Origin: Escherichia phage vB_Eco_SLUR25
Sequence record: LT907986.1
DNA: 58,998 bases
Strand: one strand, 5' to 3'
How positions within the stretch are numbered: the stretch's first letter is position 1; each line of letters opens with the position of its first letter. This document shows positions 1-58,998 of this stretch, one piece after another. Below the pieces are notes generated by a model. It searched no databases. It was not told the DNA's origin and saw only the letters and a list, made by a program, of their open reading frames with translations. Both the position numbers and the translations under genes were made by a program.

Positions 1-481
1 ACTCCATGCACATATGCTTAGCGTCAATATAAACACATACAGCTTTCGGGTTTAAATGCTCCTGAATAGCGTCTGCAATCTGGTTAGTAAGACGTTCCTG
101 AACTTGCAGTCGACGGCTAAAAGCATCCACAACGCGAGACAGCTTACTGAGCCCAACGATCTTCCCATTTGGGACATACCCCACGACAGCATGGCCGATA
201 ATAGGAGCCATGTGATGCTCACAATGACTGTATACAGGAATATCACGGACAATGACCATTTCATTGGTGTTTTCCGCCCCATCCTCAAACGTCTTAAACA
301 GACCAGCAATATCTACATCATAACCGCTAAACCACGTTGCATAAGCTTTCGCTACACGCTCCGGAGTTTCCTCCAGCCCTGGGCGCAGAACCGCGCTAAC
401 TTCAATTTGGGATAGTAAAGTACGCACAGCGTTAGCAATACGGAATTGAACACCTTCACTATTAATACTATATTTAGACAT
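1..481 (-). CDS. folE: GTP cyclohydrolase I (FolE), N-terminal part; gene continues across the window junction into 58744..58998
   Basis: Reverse translation from ATG at 481..479 gives MSKYSINSEGVQFRIANAVRTLL...VYSHCEHHMAPIIGHAVVGYVP...; the CEHH core and length fit FolE; frame continues into the end-of-window copy. Confidence 0.75.
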   Translation of the reverse strand, partial: MSKYSINSEGVQFRIANAVRTLLSQIEVSAVLRPGLEETPERVAKAYATWFSGYDVDIAGLFKTFEDGAENTNEMVIVRDIPVYSHCEHHMAPIIGHAVVGYVPNGKIVGLSKLSRVVDAFSRRLQVQERLTNQIADAIQEHLNPKAVCVYIDAKHMCME

Positions 482-515
482 GGTTTGCAGTTTCCTTGTT
501 GTTAATGTGGTCATA

Positions 516-1037
516 TTACAGGCTATAGTTTACGTGACATTTCGAAGTTTCTTCGATGGTGCATTCTACAAGTTGAACACCATGTTCGTCAAGCAGCTGT
601 GGTCCAATTACTTCAACCATGTACGCAGCTAAGTTTTCAGCGGTCGGGTTGAATGGAAGTGACACCAGCGAACCTAAATAATCCATTTGATCCCGATGCG
701 ACATATTGTCCATAGTTGTCGTATCTACAAATTTATTTAAGCTCTCAATGAGCGGATCATGCTCCCAGTGCAGGAACTTATGGTCCCAGTTATCTTCCAG
801 CCACTGACACAGCGTAGTTTTAACCACACTAAAATCGATCACGCGTCCCACGTCGTCCAGCCCACCTTTTTCGCGAAGTGTGCCACAGCGAATAACTTTA
901 ACGTCCGTACGACCTTTCGGCGCAACCTTAAAGTGAAACTTATAGTTGTGACCATGAAGGTGGCGACACTTGCTTTCATGCCCTACAACACGATGTCCAG
1001 CGCAAATTTCATGTGAACGAATTACTGTATAACTCAT
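516..1037 (-). CDS. queD: 6-carboxy-5,6,7,8-tetrahydropterin synthase (QueD)
   Basis: 173 aa; CxxxHGH signature (CRHLHGHNY) of QueD/PTPS family; adjacent to folE/queC/queE. Confidence 0.85.
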   Translation of the reverse strand: MSYTVIRSHEICAGHRVVGHESKCRHLHGHNYKFHFKVAPKGRTDVKVIRCGTLREKGGLDDVGRVIDFSVVKTTLCQWLEDNWDHKFLHWEHDPLIESLNKFVDTTTMDNMSHRDQMDYLGSLVSLPFNPTAENLAAYMVEVIGPQLLDEHGVQLVECTIEETSKCHVNYSL

Positions 1038-1591
1038 TTTAATACCTCTTTAGACTGTTCAATTTCTAACGCACGCTGCGCCGACGCAATAATGTCTTTC
1101 AAATCTTCTACCAGATGTTTATGACCCCGTTCGCCAGGCTGCAACGCTTTTTTAATCAAATGCTGCAAAGCTGGGTTAGTTGTTTTCCAAGCTTCCAAGA
1201 CATCATACACGTCCACGATGCATTTTACAACATTGCCGTTTTCATCTTTACCATAAATAACTTTCTGATATTTATTCATGGGAATTTTAGATGGTTCATA
1301 TTTCGTAAAAATTGCGGTTTTATCAATTCTCCAGTCGGGCAAATTTGCTTCAATAGATTGTTTGACGTAATCATCCGCAACAATATATCTCCAGGCTATA
1401 ATATCTTGAACTTTATAAGGGCTATTCTCATCCATAGCCGAACGCCCTTCTATAGCCCAATCCCATCCATGTAATAGATTCTTAACGTGTGTGCCGTTGC
1501 GCAAACGAACTTCAAACTTCTCATTACGAAGAAAAATAGGCATTCCTTTACCGTCGTGTTGGTGCCAAATTTTATTCAAATTATCTTTCAT
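1034..1591 (-). CDS. hypothetical protein embedded in the 7-deazaguanine cluster
   Basis: ORF track 1034..1636; ATG at 1591 (MKDNLNKIW...) sits 2 nt after the stop of the upstream gene, so the shorter start is preferred; no recognisable motif. Confidence 0.5.
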   Translation of the reverse strand: MKDNLNKIWHQHDGKGMPIFLRNEKFEVRLRNGTHVKNLLHGWDWAIEGRSAMDENSPYKVQDIIAWRYIVADDYVKQSIEANLPDWRIDKTAIFTKYEPSKIPMNKYQKVIYGKDENGNVVKCIVDVYDVLEAWKTTNPALQHLIKKALQPGERGHKHLVEDLKDIIASAQRALEIEQSKEVLK

Positions 1592-1593
1592 TT

Positions 1594-2073
1594 TTACGCT
1601 CTTGCTGTACGTGAATGAACTTCGTAAACAACCCAAAGGATAGCGGATGCTGTGAACTTACTTAAGCTCATTGCTACCATTGATCCCGGATTAACAATAC
1701 CTATAATACTTAAGAACACAATGGAGTCAATCGGTACAGCTACCAAAGAGCTGATAAATACGCGTTGATGAAAAGGCTTCTTGGTGACCGTGTATACTAC
1801 ATAATCAGCAAACTCACTAAGCGCAAAAGACGCAACGGATGCAACTACAACCGCAGGATTACCGAACACCCAGCTAAGGATGCAACCAACGATCATTGCA
1901 GGGATAACGCCTTTGCCAGCGTTACGCTGTGCGTAATCACGCAGAACAAAGATAATGCCTACAAAGAAAGCCATCATTGGGACTACGCCAAGTGGCGTAT
2001 TAAGCATCGGAAGGTAGGAAAAGCCCAGGTTTACGAATGTAATTGCAGCCAGATAAGCAACGATAAATTTCAT
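1594..2073 (-). CDS. multi-pass membrane protein, putative queuosine-precursor transporter (YhhQ/DUF165-like, short form)
   Basis: 159 aa, 4-5 hydrophobic helices; segments FFVGIIFVLRDY and VAVPIDSIVFLSIIG resemble recalled E. coli YhhQ; lies between queD and queC. Confidence 0.4.
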   Translation of the reverse strand: MKFIVAYLAAITFVNLGFSYLPMLNTPLGVVPMMAFFVGIIFVLRDYAQRNAGKGVIPAMIVGCILSWVFGNPAVVVASVASFALSEFADYVVYTVTKKPFHQRVFISSLVAVPIDSIVFLSIIGIVNPGSMVAMSLSKFTASAILWVVYEVHSRTARA

Positions 2074-2193
2074 ACTTTTGTTCTCCAGTTTTAACAGCGC
2101 TGTTCGCTGGTTGTTGGGTTTAAAAGCTTTAGTAGTATAGTTGGGTTACCGCACCCTAAACAATGCGCTAGCGGTGCGGTTTTCGCGGTAAGA

Positions 2194-2901
2194 TCAAGCT
2201 TTGCTAATAAATTCGCTGTACCCTTTAGCACGAAGTTTACACGCCGGGCATTCCCCGCAACCATACCCCCAGTCATGCAGAGTGCGGCGGACGCCATTAT
2301 AGCACGTATGGGACTGCTCAATTACTGTGGTTAAGAAACCAACCTTATCCGCCAGCTCAAACGTTTCTGCTTTATTCAAACGCATAAGCGGAGTAACAAA
2401 ATGGATATCTGTTTCATATCCAACGTTTAACGTAGCTTCAAGCAGATCTACAAACTGCTGGCGGCAATCCGGATAACCGCTATAGTCTGTTTCACAAACG
2501 CCTGTAACCACATATCGGGCTCCGACCTTCTGCGCGTAGGCGTGCGCGGTAGTCAGGAAAAGGGCATTACGGTTTGGCACAAAGCTTGCCGGAAGGTTGT
2601 TGTGCTGTTCGTGATGTTCGTTAACATCACCTTCGTTCCCGATTAAAGCACTATTGCCAATCTGTTTCAATGCAGGTAATTCAAAGACAACAAACGGGAC
2701 ATTGTGCTCTTTACAAATTTGATTAGCACAAGCCAGCTCAATGTTATGACGTTGACCGTATGCAAAACCAATAGCGTAGACTTTGTCATAGTTATTAAGT
2801 GCAAGACCTAGACAAGTCACGCTGTCCTGGCCGCCAGACAGGACGACAACGGCGGAGTTATGATTTTTTACAGGGAATACCAGTTTATCTAATTTATTCA
2901 T
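2194..2901 (-). CDS. queC: 7-cyano-7-deazaguanine synthase (QueC), standalone (no amidotransferase fusion)
   Basis: 235 aa; PP-loop SGGQDS near N-terminus; C-terminal Cys cluster C..CGxCxxC. Confidence 0.9.
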   Translation of the reverse strand: MNKLDKLVFPVKNHNSAVVVLSGGQDSVTCLGLALNNYDKVYAIGFAYGQRHNIELACANQICKEHNVPFVVFELPALKQIGNSALIGNEGDVNEHHEQHNNLPASFVPNRNALFLTTAHAYAQKVGARYVVTGVCETDYSGYPDCRQQFVDLLEATLNVGYETDIHFVTPLMRLNKAETFELADKVGFLTTVIEQSHTCYNGVRRTLHDWGYGCGECPACKLRAKGYSEFISKA

Positions 2902-2902
2902 T

Positions 2903-3091
2903 TTAGAAACCTTTAAGGCTAATATTAAGGTTAATGACTACTTGTTCAACTACAGCTTCAGAGGTTACCTGACGCTGGTGTATCTCAAGCTCCGAATGTA
3001 TTTTCTTGGATGCAGCACGACAAATAGCGTCATTCAACTCGTCTTGTAAACGTTGAATTTTCTGCATAAGGATTACAGTTTCTTCATTCAT
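2903..3091 (-). CDS. small hypothetical protein (tandem paralog 1)
   Basis: 62 aa ORF; sequence pattern similar to adjacent 3084..3296 product. Confidence 0.4.
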   Translation of the reverse strand: MNEETVILMQKIQRLQDELNDAICRAASKKIHSELEIHQRQVTSEAVVEQVVINLNISLKGF

Positions 3092-3296
3092 TTACTTCAC
3101 CTTTAATATCACAAGGGTTAATTGTTACGTTAGACATTACAATTGGATGATTGCGCGCTCCAATTGTGCTAACGTGATTAATATCTAATTCTACATGCAC
3201 GCCCTGCATAGTAGCGTGAGCAATTGCAGAATTAAGTTTTTCTACCAGCTCAGTGATCATTTCCTGATGCTGTTTCGCTTCTTCCAAAGTGATCAT
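3084..3296 (-). CDS. small hypothetical protein (tandem paralog 2); start may be the internal Met at 3260
   Basis: 70 aa ORF; ELVEKLNSAIAHATMQGVHVELDINHVS resembles DELNDAICRAASKKIHSELEIHQRQVTS of neighbour. Confidence 0.4.
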   Translation of the reverse strand: MITLEEAKQHQEMITELVEKLNSAIAHATMQGVHVELDINHVSTIGARNHPIVMSNVTINPCDIKGEVNE

Positions 3297-3552
3297 TTCT
3301 TTTCACCTTCACTAATGTTTGTTTATAATCCATACCTTCAAGGTCAACTTCTGCCATTTCACAAAAGTTATCATCTTCCCAGTATGATATCCATTTAGTT
3401 TCACTGTCCATCAACGTTGGCTCATACTCGAATCCGTAAACTGTACCGTCCTGATCCGTAGCCAGCCACCGTACCCATTCAGGGACATCAAGCTTATTAC
3501 CAAAGTATTCAACTTCTTTAGTATGCACAACCTGACTTAACACACGCATCAT
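3250..3552 (-). CDS. hypothetical protein embedded in the 7-deazaguanine cluster
   Basis: 100 aa ORF between queC and queE, acidic, no recognised motif. Confidence 0.45.
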   Translation of the reverse strand: MMRVLSQVVHTKEVEYFGNKLDVPEWVRWLATDQDGTVYGFEYEPTLMDSETKWISYWEDDNFCEMAEVDLEGMDYKQTLVKVKRNDHFGRSETASGNDH

Positions 3553-4256
3553 TCAACCCCGATATATTTGTGAACCTGAAGCTGCAACGTGTACCCGTGT
3601 TTCATACAGCTTTGGACAACGGCTTGGATGTTACTGTGGTTAAGGTCTTCATCCTGCTCGTCCATTGGCTGTAAATATATCTTACCCTTGAAACCCTTCG
3701 GAGGTCTAGCGATAAATGGCGTAGCTTGATGATCTAATGCCTGAAGCGGCAAACCATCTTCCACGTTTACACAGCACGCTTTAAGTACATATTTAAATGC
3801 GTTTGCGCGGTACAGCACAGTAGGATGAATTTTTGAAGTCTTGGGACTACATACAATTACAGGTAACTGGGAAAAGTTCTTAGGTAAAGGCATAGACCCA
3901 TTAGTTTCAATTTGCACCAAATAGCCGCGCGATAACAGTTGTTCAATAAACGGGTTAATTTGCTGACGGAACGGTTCACCCCCAGTGATAACCACAAGTG
4001 AGGTGCTATTGCCTGATTCCAGCTTACGGCTTTCGATTAAACGCATAATATCGACAATATGATAAAGACTACGACCAACAGTATAATCCGTATCACAGCC
4101 AGGACATTGCAGGTTGCACCCAGCAAGACGCACAAATACAGCAGGTTGGCCGCAGAATGGACCTTCACCCTGAATGGTAGAGAATACCGAATGCACGTCT
4201 AAATACATATCGTTTTCTTTAGAACGGGACTCGGGAGCTTGTTGATTAATATTCAT
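3549..4256 (-). CDS. queE: 7-carboxy-7-deazaguanine synthase (QueE), radical SAM
   Basis: 235 aa; radical-SAM Cys triad CNLQCPGC (CxxxCxxC) near N-terminus; overlaps upstream gene by 4 nt. Confidence 0.85.
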   Translation of the reverse strand: MNINQQAPESRSKENDMYLDVHSVFSTIQGEGPFCGQPAVFVRLAGCNLQCPGCDTDYTVGRSLYHIVDIMRLIESRKLESGNSTSLVVITGGEPFRQQINPFIEQLLSRGYLVQIETNGSMPLPKNFSQLPVIVCSPKTSKIHPTVLYRANAFKYVLKACCVNVEDGLPLQALDHQATPFIARPPKGFKGKIYLQPMDEQDEDLNHSNIQAVVQSCMKHGYTLQLQVHKYIGVE

Positions 4257-4278
4257 CTTAAATCCTCTAGTGAAAAAG

Positions 4279-4300
4279 AAAGCGCCTCATTGGGCGCTTT
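4279..4300 (-). terminator. rho-independent terminator-like hairpin after gene 4326..5129
   Basis: Stem AAAGCGCC/GGCGCTTT with 6-nt loop; minus-strand reading is followed by a T5 tract. Confidence 0.5.
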
Positions 4301-4325
4301 CATTATAACGTGATATGTTTTGATA

Positions 4326-5129
4326 TTACAAGCCGTTCAGGGCTTCCGGTACTGGCATAGGTACGCGACCAGTTACACCATTAAACTTCTTCCAACGTGC
4401 ATACTGAGTTTTAACAGTATCTTCGTTCAGACCGTGGCGACCAGCCAGATTCAGAACATAAGAGATCGGAGCAGGCTGACCCAGCGTAGCGCTAATCTGA
4501 TCCATCAGAGCCCAGGCACGACCGCAGGAAGTTTCAGGTTGTGGACGACGAACACCATTCTGTTCAGGCATACGGTTCGCTTCTTTCGCTTTTTCACGTT
4601 CAGCTTTTTCGCGGGCTTTTTCAGCAGCCTTTTCAGCCTGTTTAGCAGCGCGGATCTTGTCTTTGAAGCCTTTGATAGACGAATCCAGTTCGTCAACCAT
4701 GCTCTGCGCAGCAGTCACTGCACCGGACAGATCTTCACCTTTGGATTTTTTAACAACTGCTTTCAGATCTTTCAGAGCATTCTTTAAATGCTTCAGCTGT
4801 TCAGAACCCTTAGATTCTGCTTCCGTAATCTGTTCAACAGTGCTTTCATCGGTAATACCGGATAAAGCAAACTTCACGGTTTCAACTGCCTGGGAAAGAG
4901 CGGTAAATTTATTTTCAGCTTCAGTACGAATTTCAGCTTGTTTCTTTTCGGCGGCAGCTTTTTTCTCTGCTTCTTTTTTCTCTTTTGCTACGCGTGCAGC
5001 TTCAGCGGCAGCGGCTTTTTTAGCTTCTGCGTCGTTAGCAGTAGCTTCTTTCTTTGCAGGCTTAGCAGATTTTGCAGCGGCAGCAGCGGCTGCGGCAGCA
5101 GCGGCTTTCTTATCTTCAATATTACTCAT
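4326..5129 (-). CDS. Ala/Lys/Glu-rich low-complexity protein with a conserved C-terminal domain (paralogous to C-terminus of 20655..21269 product)
   Basis: ATG at 5129 with RBS GGAGTG 6 nt upstream (5138 is GTG); poly-Ala run encoded by GCN repeats near 5075..5110; C-terminus NGVRRP...W...LG.P...TV..QYARWKKFNG. Confidence 0.55.
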   Translation of the reverse strand: MSNIEDKKAAAAAAAAAAAKSAKPAKKEATANDAEAKKAAAAEAARVAKEKKEAEKKAAAEKKQAEIRTEAENKFTALSQAVETVKFALSGITDESTVEQITEAESKGSEQLKHLKNALKDLKAVVKKSKGEDLSGAVTAAQSMVDELDSSIKGFKDKIRAAKQAEKAAEKAREKAEREKAKEANRMPEQNGVRRPQPETSCGRAWALMDQISATLGQPAPISYVLNLAGRHGLNEDTVKTQYARWKKFNGVTGRVPMPVPEALNGL

Positions 5130-5256
5130 TTTCTTCACTCCGAATTATTATGGGTTCGTTTGTTACCAACGGGGTTAAATGTACCAAAGGATTTTGTGAC
5201 ACGCAACCCCTTACATAAACATTTTTAAAAATATTTTTGATCAGGGTTAGAACTTA

Positions 5257-5751
5257 TTAGCTCTTCGCACCTCTGCCCGGTGTCCATGCTGCTTGCAATG
5301 CGGGTCGCTCACAAATGACCCTGGCACCGGAAATAATACTACCCTCCCGTTCAGCATCGTATTTGACACGGGCAGGTTTCCAAAGTCCTTCATCCATTGA
5401 CGGAACGTATTGCCCAATTTGAGGTGAGCAAAAGCCTTGGATATCGTATTCCACACAGAATTCGGCTTGTGCGCTGATTTGGGCGTGATCCAGGATTGTT
5501 TCTGGAAGTTGCGTAAAGTAATCAAACAAAATGCGCTCAACAATTTCCCGTTCATAAGGTGCAGCTCCTAAGTTTTCTGTCAGGTTAATATAAAGCATTT
5601 GAAGATCAACATCTTCAAGATCTTTTAAATCGTTTACTGGTGTTACCAGTGTTGACTCTGGACAACAAATAATTCCAAGTTGGTGTAGTGTCAGCCAATT
5701 GGGATGCTTTGCCAAGAGTTCAAATTTATCTGTATCAATCAGGACGTACAT
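5257..5751 (-). CDS. hypothetical protein
   Basis: 164 aa ORF; ATG at 5751 preceded by AGGGGAT RBS. Confidence 0.5.
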   Translation of the reverse strand: MYVLIDTDKFELLAKHPNWLTLHQLGIICCPESTLVTPVNDLKDLEDVDLQMLYINLTENLGAAPYEREIVERILFDYFTQLPETILDHAQISAQAEFCVEYDIQGFCSPQIGQYVPSMDEGLWKPARVKYDAEREGSIISGARVICERPALQAAWTPGRGAKS

Positions 5752-5772
5752 TGCGATCCCCTATAAATAAGT

Positions 5773-5795
5773 AATGCCCCAATAGTAGGGGCATT
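5773..5795 (-). terminator. terminator-like hairpin between helicase and downstream gene
   Basis: Stem AATGCCCC/GGGGCATT, 7-nt loop, followed on minus strand by a T-rich stretch. Confidence 0.4.
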
Positions 5796-5810
5796 AGATG
5801 TTGAAGTCAA

Positions 5811-7787
5811 TTAGAAAGGAACGTAATCCGGATCATCTACTTGTACAGGGTTAACCACATTGTTCACCGTTATACCTTGCGTATTCTGCGAAACAATATC
5901 GTCCCAGCTTACATCATCGTTATAGCTCGGACCTTCTGTCGTTCCATCCTGACCGTATACTTTAACCTGAATAGCTTCGTCGTCCTGTGGAGCTTCAAAC
6001 TTACCGAAACAAGTACCGTCATAATCATAGTTCAATATCTCAGGCCATTTCTTATTGGTATGAACTTTGATGTATTTTGGTGTTTTAAGCATTGCAGCAA
6101 CATCAAGAGCTTCTTCAATAGTTTGTGGTAAAGGTAAATGTGTCCTTTTCTTCCACCATGCGACAGCTTTACGACCTGCCCAGTCGCCATGAAGCAGAGC
6201 TACCCATTCGCTGAATATTTTACTACCGCAATAATAAGTCACCTTCATTGTTGGAGGTTTAGAGCTGTCATTGCGTTTAGTATGCTTTGCATAAGTCACA
6301 TGCGTAACTTTAAAGTCTTCAACTACTGGAATATCCTGCTTGATCAGGGCTTCCGTACTTGCTGCTTTCTTGAGTTTGGTCTGGAACTTAAACTCATGAC
6401 CGCAAAAGCCTTCTTTAACGTAATCCGTCCCGCGTAGCCTAAATCCTTTCAGATATAATTGTTGAACTTGTTCCTGTGTGACGCTGTCCATTGGGATTGG
6501 TGCGAAGCCACCGCAATAGCGAGCAGATGCATGATTATACGACCCACATACATCGCATTCTTTAACCGGAGCAGTACCAGCACCTTTTTCGCCAGGGCGC
6601 TTGGGTTTAACAGGGTCGTTAATAGGGCCCAAACGGCGCGTATTACCGCTGAAATCCAGTACAAGGCAGTTCTGCTTGGGGCTTGCCGCAATAGCTTGTA
6701 AGCGCCCCTCCTGCGTGGAAAGATCAAAGCCCTCCGCGTACACCGGACGCGTACCGCGACCCAGCATCTGGACCCATAGCACCGCCGACGCAGTGGGGCG
6801 GAGCATGATAATTAAGTCCAGCATTGGATGATCAAAACCTGTGGTTAAGACGTTATTGTTAGTTAATGCTCGAAATTCACCGCGCTTAAACTTCTCAATA
6901 ATCTCGTCACGTTCTTTTGCATCAAGCTTAGAGTGAATACATCCACAGCTAATACCCATATCGTTCAGCATATCACACGCGTCTTTAGCGTGTTCAATAC
7001 CAGAACAAAATATAAGCCAGCTTTGACGGTCTTCACCACATTCAATTGCTTCCTCAAGTGCGCGGAGTGTTGCGTCATCGCGGTTTACCGCACTTTGCAG
7101 CTCACTCTGGATAAACTCACCGCCGCGTTTACCTACCCCGTTGAGGTCCAGCTCCATCTTAGTACGCTTTGGCACAACCGGAAGAAGATAACCTTGCTCC
7201 AGGAACCAGTTGAAGGCTTCCGGAGTAGTTGCATCAAACGTTACCTTATCAAATAACGCATCATCGTCTTCGTTTTCCTTAACAATTGAACCATACCCCA
7301 GTCGATAAGGTGTAGCAGTAAGACCGATGATTTTTAAGTAAGGGTTAACTTCACGCAACGCTGCAAAGAATTTCTTATACATTGTTGCATCACGCGGACT
7401 AATAAGATGCGCTTCGTCCACAAAAATAAGATCAACTTTGCCGAACTTTTTCGGATGCTTAGCAACGGACGCAATCCCTGCAAAGGTAATAAGATTGTAG
7501 ACTTCTTTACGCTTCAAACCCGCGCTGTAAATACCTGCTGGCGCTTCGGGCCAGACTTTCATTAATTTATCATAGTTTTGTGCAATTAACTCTTTGACGT
7601 GAGTTAACATCATTACGCGCTGGTTTGGATACCATTTGTAAAGCAGATCGAGGAACCCCGCGATAACGAGCGATTTTCCTGTCCCTGTTGGTAACAGGAT
7701 CAAAGGGTTCCCCGCGTTACCCTTTTCAGCATCAAAATAGCGGAATACGCTATAAACTGCTTCCTGTTGATAATCGCGGAGCCTCAT
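5811..7787 (-). CDS. superfamily 2 DNA helicase (DEAH-box)
   Basis: Walker A PTGTGKS, motif II VDEAH, later motifs TATP and QMLGRGTR; ATG at 7787 (track start 7793 is TTG). Confidence 0.8.
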   Translation of the reverse strand: MRLRDYQQEAVYSVFRYFDAEKGNAGNPLILLPTGTGKSLVIAGFLDLLYKWYPNQRVMMLTHVKELIAQNYDKLMKVWPEAPAGIYSAGLKRKEVYNLITFAGIASVAKHPKKFGKVDLIFVDEAHLISPRDATMYKKFFAALREVNPYLKIIGLTATPYRLGYGSIVKENEDDDALFDKVTFDATTPEAFNWFLEQGYLLPVVPKRTKMELDLNGVGKRGGEFIQSELQSAVNRDDATLRALEEAIECGEDRQSWLIFCSGIEHAKDACDMLNDMGISCGCIHSKLDAKERDEIIEKFKRGEFRALTNNNVLTTGFDHPMLDLIIMLRPTASAVLWVQMLGRGTRPVYAEGFDLSTQEGRLQAIAASPKQNCLVLDFSGNTRRLGPINDPVKPKRPGEKGAGTAPVKECDVCGSYNHASARYCGGFAPIPMDSVTQEQVQQLYLKGFRLRGTDYVKEGFCGHEFKFQTKLKKAASTEALIKQDIPVVEDFKVTHVTYAKHTKRNDSSKPPTMKVTYYCGSKIFSEWVALLHGDWAGRKAVAWWKKRTHLPLPQTIEEALDVAAMLKTPKYIKVHTNKKWPEILNYDYDGTCFGKFEAPQDDEAIQVKVYGQDGTTEGPSYNDDVSWDDIVSQNTQGITVNNVVNPVQVDDPDYVPF

Positions 7788-7789
7788 AA

Positions 7790-8698
7790 TCAATCTTTCC
7801 CGTAATAATTAGCTACTTGATAGTTTTGACAACCAACTTTCTGCCCTTGCGTATCCACTGCGGCGGAATGGAAATTGCAATACCATGTTCCATCTTCTTT
7901 TGGTTCAAGGAATTGGCATGTGCGGCAGTTTACTTCCGGCATAGTTTTACGCCAGCATAGTGAGGAGTGATCGCACCATTTACATTCGAAGAAAGTGGAA
8001 TCTTTAAATGCGCGGTCCGGAATATCTGTAGCAATAGCAATCTGCACACCACGATCAATATACATGTCCGCGGTAACAGGATCAAACGGAATAATTTCTG
8101 CGTAAACTTCATCGTCATTCTTGTTTACAGCAAGATATAACGCTGCGCCAAGACCTAGTTTTCGCATGTACACGTTCATCTGTACATAGTGCTCAGGTTT
8201 GGCTTCTTTAACACCTTTAGCTTTCAGCTTTTTAAAAGACTTATCGTTATGCGTCTTCATTTCGGTGAGCACAGGCATCCCAGGCTGCACGTCCGGACAA
8301 CCTATAACCACACCATCGCAGGAACCGCCAAAGTGTCCGCCAGCTTCGCTGATACGGAACTGGTGTCCATTTTCGTCCTGCTGATAGACCTGCATACCTG
8401 CCGCAAGAAGCATAGCAATGAAACGCGCTTCTTCCAGATGTCCGCGGTTAAACAGTCGAAGCTGGCGTCCGTCAAACTCTTTGCGTGTAGCCCAGCGATA
8501 TCCATAGAAAAGCTTGCGTGCGCATTGCTGCCCAATAAGGGAAGCGCCTAAGTGACTGCGGTTACCGCTTTCAGGGCGATAAGCGTCTTCAATTGTGGGA
8601 ATGACTACGCCAAGATACTTACGGTAAGTCCCACCCTGATCTTTTTGCACACCGTCATTGATCGCTTGAAGTGTTTTTTCTGCAATATAAATAGCCAT
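7790..8698 (-). CDS. PD-(D/E)xK exonuclease, Cas4-like with Fe-S cysteine cluster
   Basis: 302 aa; D...EMK nuclease-like motif; N-terminal Cys plus C-terminal CxxCx5C (CKWCDHSSLC), the Cas4/RecB-family pattern. Confidence 0.6.
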   Translation of the reverse strand: MAIYIAEKTLQAINDGVQKDQGGTYRKYLGVVIPTIEDAYRPESGNRSHLGASLIGQQCARKLFYGYRWATRKEFDGRQLRLFNRGHLEEARFIAMLLAAGMQVYQQDENGHQFRISEAGGHFGGSCDGVVIGCPDVQPGMPVLTEMKTHNDKSFKKLKAKGVKEAKPEHYVQMNVYMRKLGLGAALYLAVNKNDDEVYAEIIPFDPVTADMYIDRGVQIAIATDIPDRAFKDSTFFECKWCDHSSLCWRKTMPEVNCRTCQFLEPKEDGTWYCNFHSAAVDTQGQKVGCQNYQVANYYGKD

Positions 8699-8763
8699 TG
8701 GAATACCTTAGAAAAATAAGCCGTCTTTCGACGGCTTATGGACACTACAGAGGGAGGGTTATC

Positions 8764-9645
8764 TTACTGCTGCCACGGCGGGACTGCTGCTTGTGCTGGA
8801 TGCGGTTCAGCTTGCTGCTGCGGCTGAGCTTGCTGCTGAGGCGCTGCTGCCTGACCCGGCTGTGCTACCTGCTGCGCCCACGGCTGCTGGGCTGCTTCCG
8901 GTGCTACTGGCTGTTGTACCGGAGCTTGCTGCACTGGCTGCTGTGGTGCTGCGTTTTGAGCAGGATTATCCCACGGCTGCGGTGCGGCATTCTGCCACGG
9001 TTGTGCTGCTGCGCCCTGCTGTGGTGCTGGTTGCTGCACAGGCTGCTGAACTGGTTGCTGTTGCTGCACCGGAGCTTGCTGCTGAGGCGCTTGCTGTTGC
9101 TGTGCAAACGGGTTAGCTGCTGGTTGCTGAGGTGCTGCGCCCGGGAAAGCTGGCTGCTGTGCTGGCGCACCTGCACCGAACGGGTTAGCTACTGCCGCTT
9201 GAGCACCCATTGCTGGAGCACCTGCTTCTTTTTCTGCATACTTAACCGGATCGTTGATGTTAGCATAACCGTTAGGCTCGTTGCTGTCTTCATAACCTTC
9301 CTGAGAACGAACTTTCAGACGCAGGTTCAGCGGAATGTTATGCAGTTGAGCAGGAGTATCCCAGCGAATTACGCCAACCGCATGGGAAAGCGCGCCCAGT
9401 TGTTCGTATGCGATACGCACAGTATCTTCGTTGTCGTTGATAACATTGTAACGAGCAAAGATTTTACGACCTTTAGCAAAACCATCAATGATGCTAAACG
9501 TTACCTGGATCGCCATACCGCCATTTTTGGTCGGTTTAAATTCAGATGCTTCAATTACTGCTTTATACCAACCTTTCGGCAATGCGCCGTAAGAAGGTGC
9601 TTGATAGCTGCTCGCGTCAAAGTGGAAATTAGTTGGCATAGTCAT
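8764..9645 (-). CDS. DUF669-like (SSB-like) recombination-associated protein with long Gln/Pro/Ala-rich C-terminal tail
   Basis: Globular N-terminal ~130 aa followed by ~160 aa of QQP/QPW low complexity; immediately downstream of Sak4-like ATPase with TAATG overlap. Confidence 0.5.
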   Translation of the reverse strand: MTMPTNFHFDASSYQAPSYGALPKGWYKAVIEASEFKPTKNGGMAIQVTFSIIDGFAKGRKIFARYNVINDNEDTVRIAYEQLGALSHAVGVIRWDTPAQLHNIPLNLRLKVRSQEGYEDSNEPNGYANINDPVKYAEKEAGAPAMGAQAAVANPFGAGAPAQQPAFPGAAPQQPAANPFAQQQQAPQQQAPVQQQQPVQQPVQQPAPQQGAAAQPWQNAAPQPWDNPAQNAAPQQPVQQAPVQQPVAPEAAQQPWAQQVAQPGQAAAPQQQAQPQQQAEPHPAQAAVPPWQQ

Positions 9646-13513: not shown

Positions 13514-13754
13514 TTTTCTATCCTCTGTTGTGTTTCGATGTATGTATAATAGCACATCCATGTGACAGGGCAAGACTCAATTCGTATCAATTAATCTTTT
13601 TAAACGGATTTGTAATCTAGCAACCTTCCTCCATTCAGCATCCTCCATTAATGGTGTAGACTTATAGGCTTCAGGTATCGGACAAGGTATATAGGGTTCC
13701 ATGTCAGATATTACTTGCTTTGATAACTTTTTCTTCCGTTTACCCATAAATAGC

Positions 13755-14510
13755 CTATTTCAAATAGCGGGAAGTCATAATTGGATGCAAAGACACTTCT
13801 TCCTCAGATGTAACCACATTGGGCTTCCCTGAGCAAGGCACTTCTAATTCAATTTCAGCTGCCCCACAGACACGGCATTGATGTAATGCAATTTCACCAT
13901 TTCTATCCTTGATGCACTCAGGGGCGTCCGGATCGCTATTAATATATAATTCATGACCGTTTATAAAAGGTCGCATATCCTGTTTACGATAAGCTACACC
14001 CGTTGACCCGAAACCATTAGCACCGCGCTCAGTAGTCTTGAGCTCGTCTACTTCTACCAGTTGCACGCAAGGCACCTTAATAAGCATAGCTTGCGCAATA
14101 CGATCACCATGACTAACGGTAAAACTACCATTATGATCAATAGTAAGCTTAACTTTAACTTCGCCAGTGTAGTCGCTATCGATGACACCTACGCAGTTAG
14201 CCAAACGAACGTCATTTTTGAATCCATGTCCACTCCGGGAATAGACCATAAGCGCATATCCTTTAGGGATATCAAATGCTAACCCTGTACGGAATACGTG
14301 CTCGTAAGAGAAAATGATTTGTTCACAACCGTCTTCACTTTTGAGATCCGCGTGCAGGTCAAAGCAAGCTGCCCCGGCAGTGGCAAACGCTGGTAGAATT
14401 GCCGTGTCAGTTAAACGTTTCACACCGACCGGAATTGTGCTTAATGATGCAGCAAGTTTTTCAACATCAATTGCAAAAGAATTTTTTGTGATATTTAATA
14501 CATCAGTCAT
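13755..14510 (-). CDS. dut: dUTP diphosphatase (dUTPase) with C-terminal Cys-containing extension
   Basis: Motifs YSRSGHG, GVIDSDYTGE, HGDRIAQ typical of trimeric dUTPases; extra ~90 aa C-terminal region with CxxC. Confidence 0.8.
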   Translation of the reverse strand: MTDVLNITKNSFAIDVEKLAASLSTIPVGVKRLTDTAILPAFATAGAACFDLHADLKSEDGCEQIIFSYEHVFRTGLAFDIPKGYALMVYSRSGHGFKNDVRLANCVGVIDSDYTGEVKVKLTIDHNGSFTVSHGDRIAQAMLIKVPCVQLVEVDELKTTERGANGFGSTGVAYRKQDMRPFINGHELYINSDPDAPECIKDRNGEIALHQCRVCGAAEIELEVPCSGKPNVVTSEEEVSLHPIMTSRYLK

Positions 14511-14519
14511 AATTTCACC

Positions 14520-14987
14520 TTATTGAATTGAACCGCGATCAATTAACCATTGTTTCGCGTGCGCTTTAAAGATAATGCGGTAGTCATCGAGACTAATTTC
14601 CGCGCGGATGGAATCTTTAACTTCATACCACTGCCATTCACCATTACTGAAGACAACCGGATTAAGCGGTAGAACGACCTTCCATCCTTTACGTTCTATT
14701 TTATACATCAGAACTGGATATCTGCCAAGCTCTTTAGCAGATTGGACAGTCTGCTTCCACCATGTGTTTACTTGTGGCGTAGCATGGTTTTTTACTTCAA
14801 CCGCATGGTGGCATGTATTGCTGATATCACAACCACCGACAGCACTTTGATTCTGGTTTCGCTGAGCAATAGGTTTTTCCGGTAACTGCATCCCCAGCTC
14901 TGCGTAGATTTCGGCATAAATTGCATTAAAGAAATCACATACTTCCCGCTCACCGCGTTGGCCTTTAGCGCGAATATTTACTGCCAT
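14520..14987 (-). CDS. PD-(D/E)xK nuclease, Holliday-junction-resolvase-like
   Basis: ATG at 14987 with GGAG RBS; GQRGEREV ... GGCD ... VEVK resembles E/D/ExK arrangement of Hjc-type resolvases. Confidence 0.45.
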   Translation of the reverse strand: MAVNIRAKGQRGEREVCDFFNAIYAEIYAELGMQLPEKPIAQRNQNQSAVGGCDISNTCHHAVEVKNHATPQVNTWWKQTVQSAKELGRYPVLMYKIERKGWKVVLPLNPVVFSNGEWQWYEVKDSIRAEISLDDYRIIFKAHAKQWLIDRGSIQ

Positions 14988-57315: not shown

Positions 57316-57542
57316 TAGCGATCCTCGATTGCTCTAATTGTGGTTAAATCTAATTCACAGGTTGGAGGGTATCCATAAAGTCCCATTTGTTTTCCTTGTG
57401 CATTAAACCATGTACCTGACGGATCCTGCCACTGCTTAGGTGTCTTGTGGAGAAATACTACTCTGTTTTCACCGTAATAATTAATTCTTACGCCCGTGTG
57501 AGTATATTTACGTTTACCTTTTGGTCTTCTTAAGTTAGCCAT
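57315..57542 (-). CDS. hypothetical protein
   Basis: 75 aa from ATG 57542 (57545 is TTG); overlaps dpdA stop. Confidence 0.4.
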   Translation of the reverse strand: MANLRRPKGKRKYTHTGVRINYYGENRVVFLHKTPKQWQDPSGTWFNAQGKQMGLYGYPPTCELDLTTIRAIEDR

Positions 57543-58462
57543 CAAAACAACTCCATTACACGATCACGGAATGTGCCGTCATGGGTAGCGTTAATGTTTG
57601 CAGCAATTACACCATACGCCCATAAGTTGAAGGCAGCACGTGATTCATAGATTGTTGATAAACGTTCGTAAGTGAAACCGTTTTGCTCAAGGTATTTAAG
57701 GACAGCGTCTTGTTCAATCTCAGTTAATGTTGAAACATGCTTACCAAAATGATGGCGGTCCGGTGACTTATCTGATACGCGCATTGGTCCCCACGGAGGG
57801 GTAACCACACTTCCAAACGCTGCTGCTTGAATCCAGGAGGATGAGTCGCAGCTATACCACGGATAACGTTCCATGATGGTTGTTGACGTAATACCAAACG
57901 CATGAAGTTTAATCTTAGCACGTCCGCTACCGTCGCAAATATATTTGTCCCACATGCGGTCAAGCCAAGTCTTAAGCGTGTCCGTTGAACGTCCCACCAT
58001 ACCCCCAATGGTGATATATTCGTAGTTCTTCATGTAGTATTCAAGATAGCGGAAGTCCTCCCCAAAGTGAAAGCAAGGTAACGGTTTAGCACCGCGTGCT
58101 TCCATTTCAAGCTGGTTACGGTAGGTTTGCAACGGATCACCGATACCATCAAGCACCGATGCCATTACCGCACCATCTTCTACCCGCAAAATATCTTTAT
58201 TGCGCTTGATGTATTCGCAGTATTCAACAATATCAATGTGAGCACCTAACGAGTGCGCGGAGAATGCACCGGAGTCGAGAAACACTTTAGCTCCATCCGC
58301 ACGCATCTGATCAACATACTTTTGACGTCCAACGTAGTGGTATGATTCCAAAATATGGGGCAGATTGCGCGTGATATTTTTCTCATGCTCCGACAGCTTT
58401 TCATAACGCTGCTGTCCAGGCATATATCCGTTCGTGTAAACTGCTGCCATAAAAACGTTCAT
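57542..58462 (-). CDS. dpdA: DpdA-like DNA 7-deazaguanine transglycosylase (TGT-fold)
   Basis: 306 aa; LDSGAF matches TGT catalytic Asp region (DSGGFQ-like); ITIGGMVG matches TGT GG(L/M)(S/V)G motif; clustered with folE/queD/queC/queE. Confidence 0.75.
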   Translation of the reverse strand: MNVFMAAVYTNGYMPGQQRYEKLSEHEKNITRNLPHILESYHYVGRQKYVDQMRADGAKVFLDSGAFSAHSLGAHIDIVEYCEYIKRNKDILRVEDGAVMASVLDGIGDPLQTYRNQLEMEARGAKPLPCFHFGEDFRYLEYYMKNYEYITIGGMVGRSTDTLKTWLDRMWDKYICDGSGRAKIKLHAFGITSTTIMERYPWYSCDSSSWIQAAAFGSVVTPPWGPMRVSDKSPDRHHFGKHVSTLTEIEQDAVLKYLEQNGFTYERLSTIYESRAAFNLWAYGVIAANINATHDGTFRDRVMELF

Positions 58463-58743: not shown

Positions 58744-58998
58744 TTATTTACAAGCTTCAAGGAACTCCCGGCGCCATTCTTTACCAATATTGCTACCATG
58801 CTCCAGTTCTGTAGCGCCCCGGAACGCTTTGGTAATAGTAGAGCTGCCGCATACCTGTTTAACACCGCGCGACTCCATGCACATATGCTTAGCGTCAATA
58901 TAAACACATACAGCTTTCGGGTTTAAATGCTCCTGAATAGCGTCTGCAATCTGGTTAGTAAGACGTTCCTGAACTTGCAGTCGACGGCTAAAAGCATC
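58744..58998 (-). CDS. folE: GTP cyclohydrolase I (FolE), C-terminal part (stop at 58744..58746); 58872..58998 duplicates 1..127
   Basis: Reading frame from 1..481 continues through the junction: ...[46 protein letters not shown]. Confidence 0.7.
58872..58998. repeat. 127-bp exact direct repeat of window positions 1..127 (terminal overlap of a circular assembly)
   Basis: Last 127 nt are identical to first 127 nt; repeat lies inside the folE coding sequence. Confidence 0.9.

Follow-up and report, generated by a model that had tools for sequence, protein, structure and literature searches.

The window analyzed here, a 58,998-nt stretch of DNA from Escherichia phage vB_Eco_SLUR25 (record LT907986.1), carries a DNA-modification cluster in which one gene, at 1594-2073 on the minus strand, had been proposed to encode a multi-pass membrane protein, and the locus raises the question of what such a protein contributes to the modification of phage DNA. 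The membrane protein of the initial annotation was confirmed, since an exact open reading frame with six hydrophobic segments and que genes as neighbours was found at these coordinates. In the order on the minus strand the gene sits between queC and queD of a folE-queD-queC-queE-dpdA cluster, for which the following features were identified:

1594-2073, minus strand: CDS of the putative preQ0 importer, 159 aa, assigned to the compact Vut_1/COG1738 (QPTR/YhhQ-family) membrane proteins
2083-2086, minus strand: Shine-Dalgarno sequence GGAG, read from the sequence 9 nt 5' of the ATG of the 1594-2073 ORF
2194-2901, minus strand: QueC, 7-cyano-7-deazaguanine synthase, the upstream neighbour (Pfam QueC, 251 bits; TIGR00364, 243 bits)
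3549-4256, minus strand: QueE, 7-carboxy-7-deazaguanine synthase, radical SAM (TIGR04322/TIGR04508, E about 1e-27)
1034-1591, minus strand: 185-aa protein, gp69-like, phrog_23361, with no assigned function; its ATG lies 2 nt past the transporter stop
516-1037, minus strand: QueD, 6-carboxytetrahydropterin synthase (Pfam PTPS, 77.7 bits)
128-481, minus strand: N-terminal part of FolE, GTP cyclohydrolase I (record annotation and joined translation)
58744-58998, minus strand: C-terminal part of FolE (joined translation)
57542-58462, minus strand: DpdA, preQ0-inserting DNA guanine transglycosylase (phrog_887, E=8e-96; DpdA annotation in KurtStettler), the enzyme predicted to use the imported base

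The window represents the genome in rotated form, with 127 nt duplicated at its ends, and folE is therefore split across the window ends; joining 58744-58998 to 128-481 gave a complete FolE of 202 amino acids. Positions 1-127 are identical to 58872-58998, a terminal redundancy of 127 bp which may be an assembly overlap. Other genes of the region were also inspected. The gene for the 185-aa protein has a GC content of 38%, against 45% in its neighbours, and an HMM scan found homologues of its product in only nine of the fetched loci, from Seuratvirus and related phages, each with a complete que cluster. Three small overlapping ORFs between queC and queE (2903-3091, 3084-3296 and 3250-3552, minus strand; 62, 70 and 100 aa) are conserved among Seuratvirus phages and have no Pfam match; the PHROGs label of the 70-aa product, "radical SAM domain-containing protein", is implausible at such a length. 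Just upstream of queE, 4326-5138 (minus strand) encodes a low-complexity protein of 270 aa, rich in Ala, Lys and Glu and with a run of 11 alanines, the counterparts of which in related phages are annotated as "FtrA domain-containing" or "plectin 1".

In the ORF listing the gene runs from an ATG at 2073 to a stop at 1596-1594 and encodes 159 aa. The spacing of 2 nt between its stop and the ATG at 1591 indicates translational coupling to the downstream gene for the 185-aa protein. Codon differences from its orthologues (synonymous/non-synonymous) numbered 13/1, 11/1, 27/4, 35/5 and 27/5, and their overwhelmingly synonymous character marks 1594-2073 as an expressed and constrained gene. The gene is under strong purifying selection and was confirmed as real; the opposite-strand ORF at 1765-2094 (109 aa) is a shadow ORF. 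Bases 1-6000 of the window are 100% identical to Escherichia phage vB_Eco_SLUR63 (LR025196.1; Seuratvirus, Queuovirinae), in which the gene is CDS VAY27818.1, labelled "hypothetical protein", and they are matched by 45 further phage records, mostly Seuratvirus-like.

A scan for promoters and terminators gave nothing above shuffled expectation near the gene. A strong stem-loop (CCGCACC...GGTGCGG) without a U-tract lies just past the queC stop (2130-2180, minus strand); it is annotated as a terminator in a related record and, according to Rfam, is not a preQ1 riboswitch. Many bacterial yhhQ genes are preceded by a preQ1 riboswitch, whereas none was found upstream of the phage gene: cmscan of 1-6000 and 2040-2230 at E ≤ 10 gave no match to the Rfam models preQ1-I, -II and -III. 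A class-I preQ1 aptamer suggested by eye at 2120-2150 (minus strand) was rejected for want of Rfam support; the folding of this stretch is no more stable than that of shuffled sequence (z=-1.0).

The same gene has a published counterpart. In phage CAjan the protein named YhhQ (YP_009196835.1, "putative preQ0 transporter") is of equal length and 99.4% identical in amino acid sequence, and its gene occupies the same place, directly downstream of queC in a like cluster; nothing of substance differs, and the label in LR025196.1 is merely less informative. Deletion of CAjan yhhQ left dPreQ0 at the wild-type level in BHI, a rich medium, and deletion of folE, queC or dpdA abolished modification or sharply reduced it (Kot 2020, PMC7544227). 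Phage EC151 (preQ0 transporter) and the BASEL phages are annotated as CAjan is, and the iggy paper repeats the annotation. The membrane gene had been called unusual in the initial annotation; in the sense of unreported it is not, the CAjan gene having been both published and deleted. YhhQ homologues had also been noted in some phages (Hutinet 2019, PMC6884629). The identification is thus correct but already known, and the biology had been put forward in Hutinet 2019, Kot 2020 and Morozova 2021.

The relationship to YhhQ was examined by profile searches. Pfam Vut_1 (PF02592) matched residues 66-145 only of the 159-aa protein (E=9.3e-6), and the score of 26.5 bits is 0.7 bit short of the Pfam gathering cut-off of 27.2 bits; relatives at 47-80% identity clear this cut-off with 27.7, 30.5 and 34.0 bits. 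When 46 diverse relatives were scanned one by one, Vut_1 was the sole Pfam family matched, by 45 of the 46 at E ≤ 1e-3. The HMM check against Vut_1/DUF165 which had been suggested was therefore positive in its E-value and among the relatives, though not at the curated cut-off. The NCBIfam model TIGR00697, "queuosine precursor transporter", was matched by 39 of the 46 relatives at E ≤ 1e-3 (best E-value 2.4e-8), and the phage protein itself scored 22.8 bits (E=6.6e-5). As this lies below the equivalog cut-off of 50.95, the protein is not a close orthologue or equivalog of E. coli YhhQ.

Direct comparison with E. coli YhhQ required a deeper profile. Pairwise BLASTP between the two proteins was not significant, the family HMM gave YhhQ about 8-10 bits, and a shallow 46-sequence profile aligned to a low-diversity YhhQ alignment reached a probability of only 1.5%. 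The link attained significance only with a 138-sequence family profile, for which hhalign gave a probability of 92.8% against the E. coli YhhQ clade (E=4e-7; phage residues 24-126 against YhhQ 35-164). Profile-profile comparison with a group of 190-aa bacterial Vut_1 proteins gave 99.4-99.7% probability; this group clears the Pfam Vut_1 cut-off at 42 bits, and the gene of one member overlaps queC. In a joint alignment, nine invariant columns are common to the phage proteins, the 190-aa bacterial group and the YhhQ clade (in phage numbering N15, D46, R50, A78, S79, D90, S108, D116 and F120); three membrane-embedded Asp residues are among the positions shared with YhhQ. A search of 5.8 billion proteins returned 108 relatives, mostly of 150-170 aa, many tagged PF02592 or named YhhQ/VUT, and an exhaustive profile search returned 1,268 cluster representatives at E ≤ 1e-3, the family being mostly compact. 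Family membership is regarded as established on these profile comparisons, by which the 159-aa protein is a genuine but very divergent, compact member of Vut_1/COG1738. The proposed likeness to YhhQ/DUF165 consequently stood at the level of the family and fell at that of close orthology.

The protein is hydrophobic throughout, and family hydropathy delimits segments at 3-18, 33-44, 56-70, 75-93, 105-124 and 131-149. Loops 45-55 and 95-104 and the C-tail are rich in K/R and loops 19-32, 71-74 and 125-130 are uncharged or acidic, a charge pattern which implies an N-in/C-in topology. Six TM helices with a cytoplasmic C-terminus are thereby predicted, as reported for YhhQ (Zallot 2017, PMC5372724). 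Six segments are consistent with a transporter; neither a topology at odds with transport nor the lack of a significant family profile match, the two outcomes named beforehand as speaking against the YhhQ reading, was encountered.

An AlphaFold2 model built on the family alignment (pLDDT 82, pTM 0.71) is all-helical with one beta-hairpin: helix 2-20, hairpin 23-32 and helices 33-70, 73-97, 101-124 and 129-158. Residues 38-70 form a single helix in the model, with at most a kink at the conserved G53; the model therefore does not settle between five and six spans, and the boundary of TM2 and TM3 rests on hydropathy. E. coli YhhQ, modelled likewise, shows the same order of elements, namely TM1, beta-hairpin, helix-Gly-helix and three more helices. 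The top structural matches of both models are the ECF S-components RibU and BtuM, and the six-helix S-component architecture (VUT, TC 2.A.88) is predicted for the phage protein. Neither the phage protein nor YhhQ has a sequence match in the PDB, so there is no direct structural template for either. The fold is likewise regarded as established, the models predicting for the 159-aa protein that of a solitary ECF S-component; systems of this type (BtuM, group-I BioY and RibU) are listed among the closest known ones.

Compared with E. coli YhhQ (COG1738, PF02592, TIGR00697, TC 2.A.88), to which it is homologous by profile-profile comparison, the phage protein shares the predicted element order, the predicted S-component fold and the linkage to 7-deazaguanine genes. 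It differs in having about 20% identity and 159 rather than 221 aa, and lacks the N-terminal ~10 residues, the inserts at 90-105 and 164-174 and the long C-tail. The helices match, which indicates that every predicted YhhQ helix is kept and that only loops and ends are trimmed. The short length, together with the dispensability of the gene in CAjan and its absence from Nonagvirus, could be taken as the mark of a truncated, decaying bacterial yhhQ remnant without function. Such a remnant would hardly be expected to show purifying selection (for example 35 synonymous against 5 non-synonymous codon differences), to retain all the predicted YhhQ helices with shortening confined to loops and tails, or to belong to a family of about 1,268 cluster representatives with 22 residues invariant across 46 diverse members. 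Decay is thus highly improbable, and on the conservation data it is effectively refuted.

A role other than transport was also weighed, in which the protein would anchor or organize the modification enzymes at the membrane, exclude superinfecting phages or act in the manner of a holin. PHROGs assigns the protein to phrog_4899, listed as of unknown function, the CAjan deletion leaves modification unaffected, and weak Foldseek matches to holins occur far down the viral list (E>1), all of which would suit such a role. It is nevertheless very unlikely, given the significant homology and the fold match to S-component transporters, the conserved charged residues within the predicted membrane helices of the phage family, the position of the gene in the que cluster and not beside an endolysin, and its recurrence beside DpdA in unrelated phages. 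A phage holin proper (1-4 TM segments, endolysin-adjacent) was rejected, there being six hydrophobic segments, a que cluster and no holin match in Pfam or PHROGs. The superinfection-exclusion and pseudogene readings were rejected as well.

Using tblastn the gene was found in 75 phage records, which include Seuratvirus, EC151, many Vibrio phages, Rhizobium Kleczkowskavirus and phages of Aminobacter, Sulfitobacter, Roseobacter and Arthrobacter; none of the 75 is an Enterobacteria phage of the 9g type (Nonagvirus). In phage 9g itself, no Vut_1 homologue was detected in the 42 kb examined, which include the whole que cluster. That cluster (3007-8212) reads dpdA, folE, queD, Gat-queC, a gene of unknown function and queE, in the same order as here. 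Since Nonagvirus, the sister genus, does without a Vut_1 gene in this cluster, the transporter counts as an accessory part of it.

Eighty IMG/VR loci encoding relatives were then scanned with iterated HMMs seeded on DpdA, FolE, QueD, QueE and QueC of this phage. DpdA was present in 70 of the 80, and in 53 of those 70 it is adjacent to the transporter. Sixteen of the DpdA-bearing loci encode at least three synthesis genes as well, and five have QueC only. In the other 49, DpdA occurs without any synthesis gene in the fetched stretch, and in every one of them its gene directly follows that of the transporter in the same orientation (IMG/VR loci L027-L092; for example L041, 9989-11395, L030 and L056). 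The short DpdA of these loci (~230 aa) belongs to phrog_887 (E=3e-42), the PHROG of DpdA in the present phage. The 49 loci fall into 26 clusters at 90% identity and six at 70%, and so represent a handful of lineages distinct from those with full clusters. Complete genomes gave a similar picture: in Vibrio phages BUCT006 (13571-14841) and K392 (8094-9358) transporter and DpdA form an adjacent pair, with FolE, QueD, QueE and QueC absent genome-wide, and in Arthrobacter phage Aoka, which has no synthesis genes, a gene annotated as DpdA-like lies two genes downstream of the transporter. Genomic association with queuosine/7-deazaguanine genes, by which the family is recognized, was accordingly found, and the linkage to DpdA is established by these counts. 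It supports a 7-deazaguanine substrate more strongly than any other independent evidence.

In at least four of the five loci with QueC only (L062, L083, L084 and L088) a short QueC of ~182 aa lies between transporter and DpdA, with no FolE, QueD or QueE nearby; that of L062 (10470-11018) has 182 aa and scores 143 bits with Pfam QueC. Phages with this variant of transporter, short QueC and DpdA might use imported or host-made CDG.

The preferred reading is that the protein is probably a solitary importer of the S-component type, by which preQ0 is taken up into infected cells for use by DpdA, as a supplement to de novo synthesis. The analysis supports the YhhQ-type interpretation of the initial annotation; we infer for the phage protein the importer function itself, including what it transports, in which direction, and that it does so independently of an ECF energising module. 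In E. coli, salvage of preQ0 at low concentrations depends on YhhQ, and strain K-12 lacks ECF core components (Zallot 2017, PMC5372724); an S-component-type protein would hence be expected to act alone. The presence of yhhQ within dpd clusters has been read as a sign that salvaged preQ0 can enter DNA (PMC5699537). The transporter gene would be co-transcribed with the phage preQ0 synthesis genes and its product inserted into the host inner membrane, where a free 7-deazaguanine base, most likely preQ0, would be bound at the periplasmic face through the conserved polar intramembrane residues N15, D46, R50, E87, D90, D116 and K139. The base would be delivered to the cytoplasm and exchanged by phage DpdA for guanine in the phage DNA. 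Import would thereby add to the preQ0 made de novo by FolE, QueD, QueE and QueC, or serve as a reserve for it, which would make the transporter accessory and not essential.

Several points count against the importer role. The host already encodes its own yhhQ, Nonagvirus 9g has the same pathway without a Vut_1 gene, the profile scores lie below the Pfam and NCBIfam cut-offs, and BLASTP to YhhQ was not significant, the shallow profile reaching only 1.5%. To these may be added the absence of a preQ1 riboswitch match upstream of the gene and the continuous helix 38-70 of the AlphaFold2 model. A further point is that the CAjan yhhQ deletion has no modification phenotype in rich medium (Kot 2020, PMC7544227).

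Family and fold could also be as described and the substrate another one (preQ1, CDG, queuine or another purine-like base), or the protein could be a facilitator or exporter controlling the intracellular 7-deazaguanine pool. This is an unlikely alternative, although it draws on the separate position and great divergence of the phage clade, with about 20% identity to YhhQ and a score below the equivalog cut-off, and on the loci with transporter, short QueC and DpdA, for which import of CDG, the substrate of QueC, would make sense. We know of no family member that acts as an exporter, which counts against the exporter reading, and in many phages the gene is tightly paired with DpdA alone, as would fit import of the base that DpdA uses. 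COG1738 is itself heterogeneous, and its subgroups are predicted to differ in their preference between preQ0, preQ1 and queuine (Zallot 2017, PMC5372724). Against this, Seuratvirus DNA contains dPreQ0 and DpdA inserts preQ0 (PMC7544227, PMC6884629), which makes preQ0 the simplest substrate.

The mildly new element is the regular pairing of the compact transporter with DpdA alone in uncultivated phages, which suggests a module of two genes operating solely by salvage. It qualifies the remark that YhhQ is uncorrelated with any phage group (Hutinet 2019, PMC6884629). A broader proposal, which we put forward tentatively and at somewhat less than even chance, is that the Vut_1 proteins of the compact phage clade go primarily with DpdA and not with the synthesis genes, transporter and DpdA forming a self-sufficient modification module based on salvage. 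Phages with such a module would import a 7-deazaguanine base produced by the host community and write it into their DNA without synthesis genes of their own, and the Seuratvirus transporter would be a retained back-up of the ancestral arrangement. If this is true, modification would be set by the transporter and not by the capacity for synthesis in many uncultivated phages, which form a large group, and modification levels would track environmental preQ0.

With regard to annotation, VAY27818.1 should be renamed [quoted passage not shown]. It points to salvage as a second way, besides synthesis, in which phages could acquire the precursors of DNA modification, and such a route would bear on predictions of how well these phages resist restriction enzymes and Cas9 where precursors are plentiful or scarce, and on the engineering of therapeutic phages.
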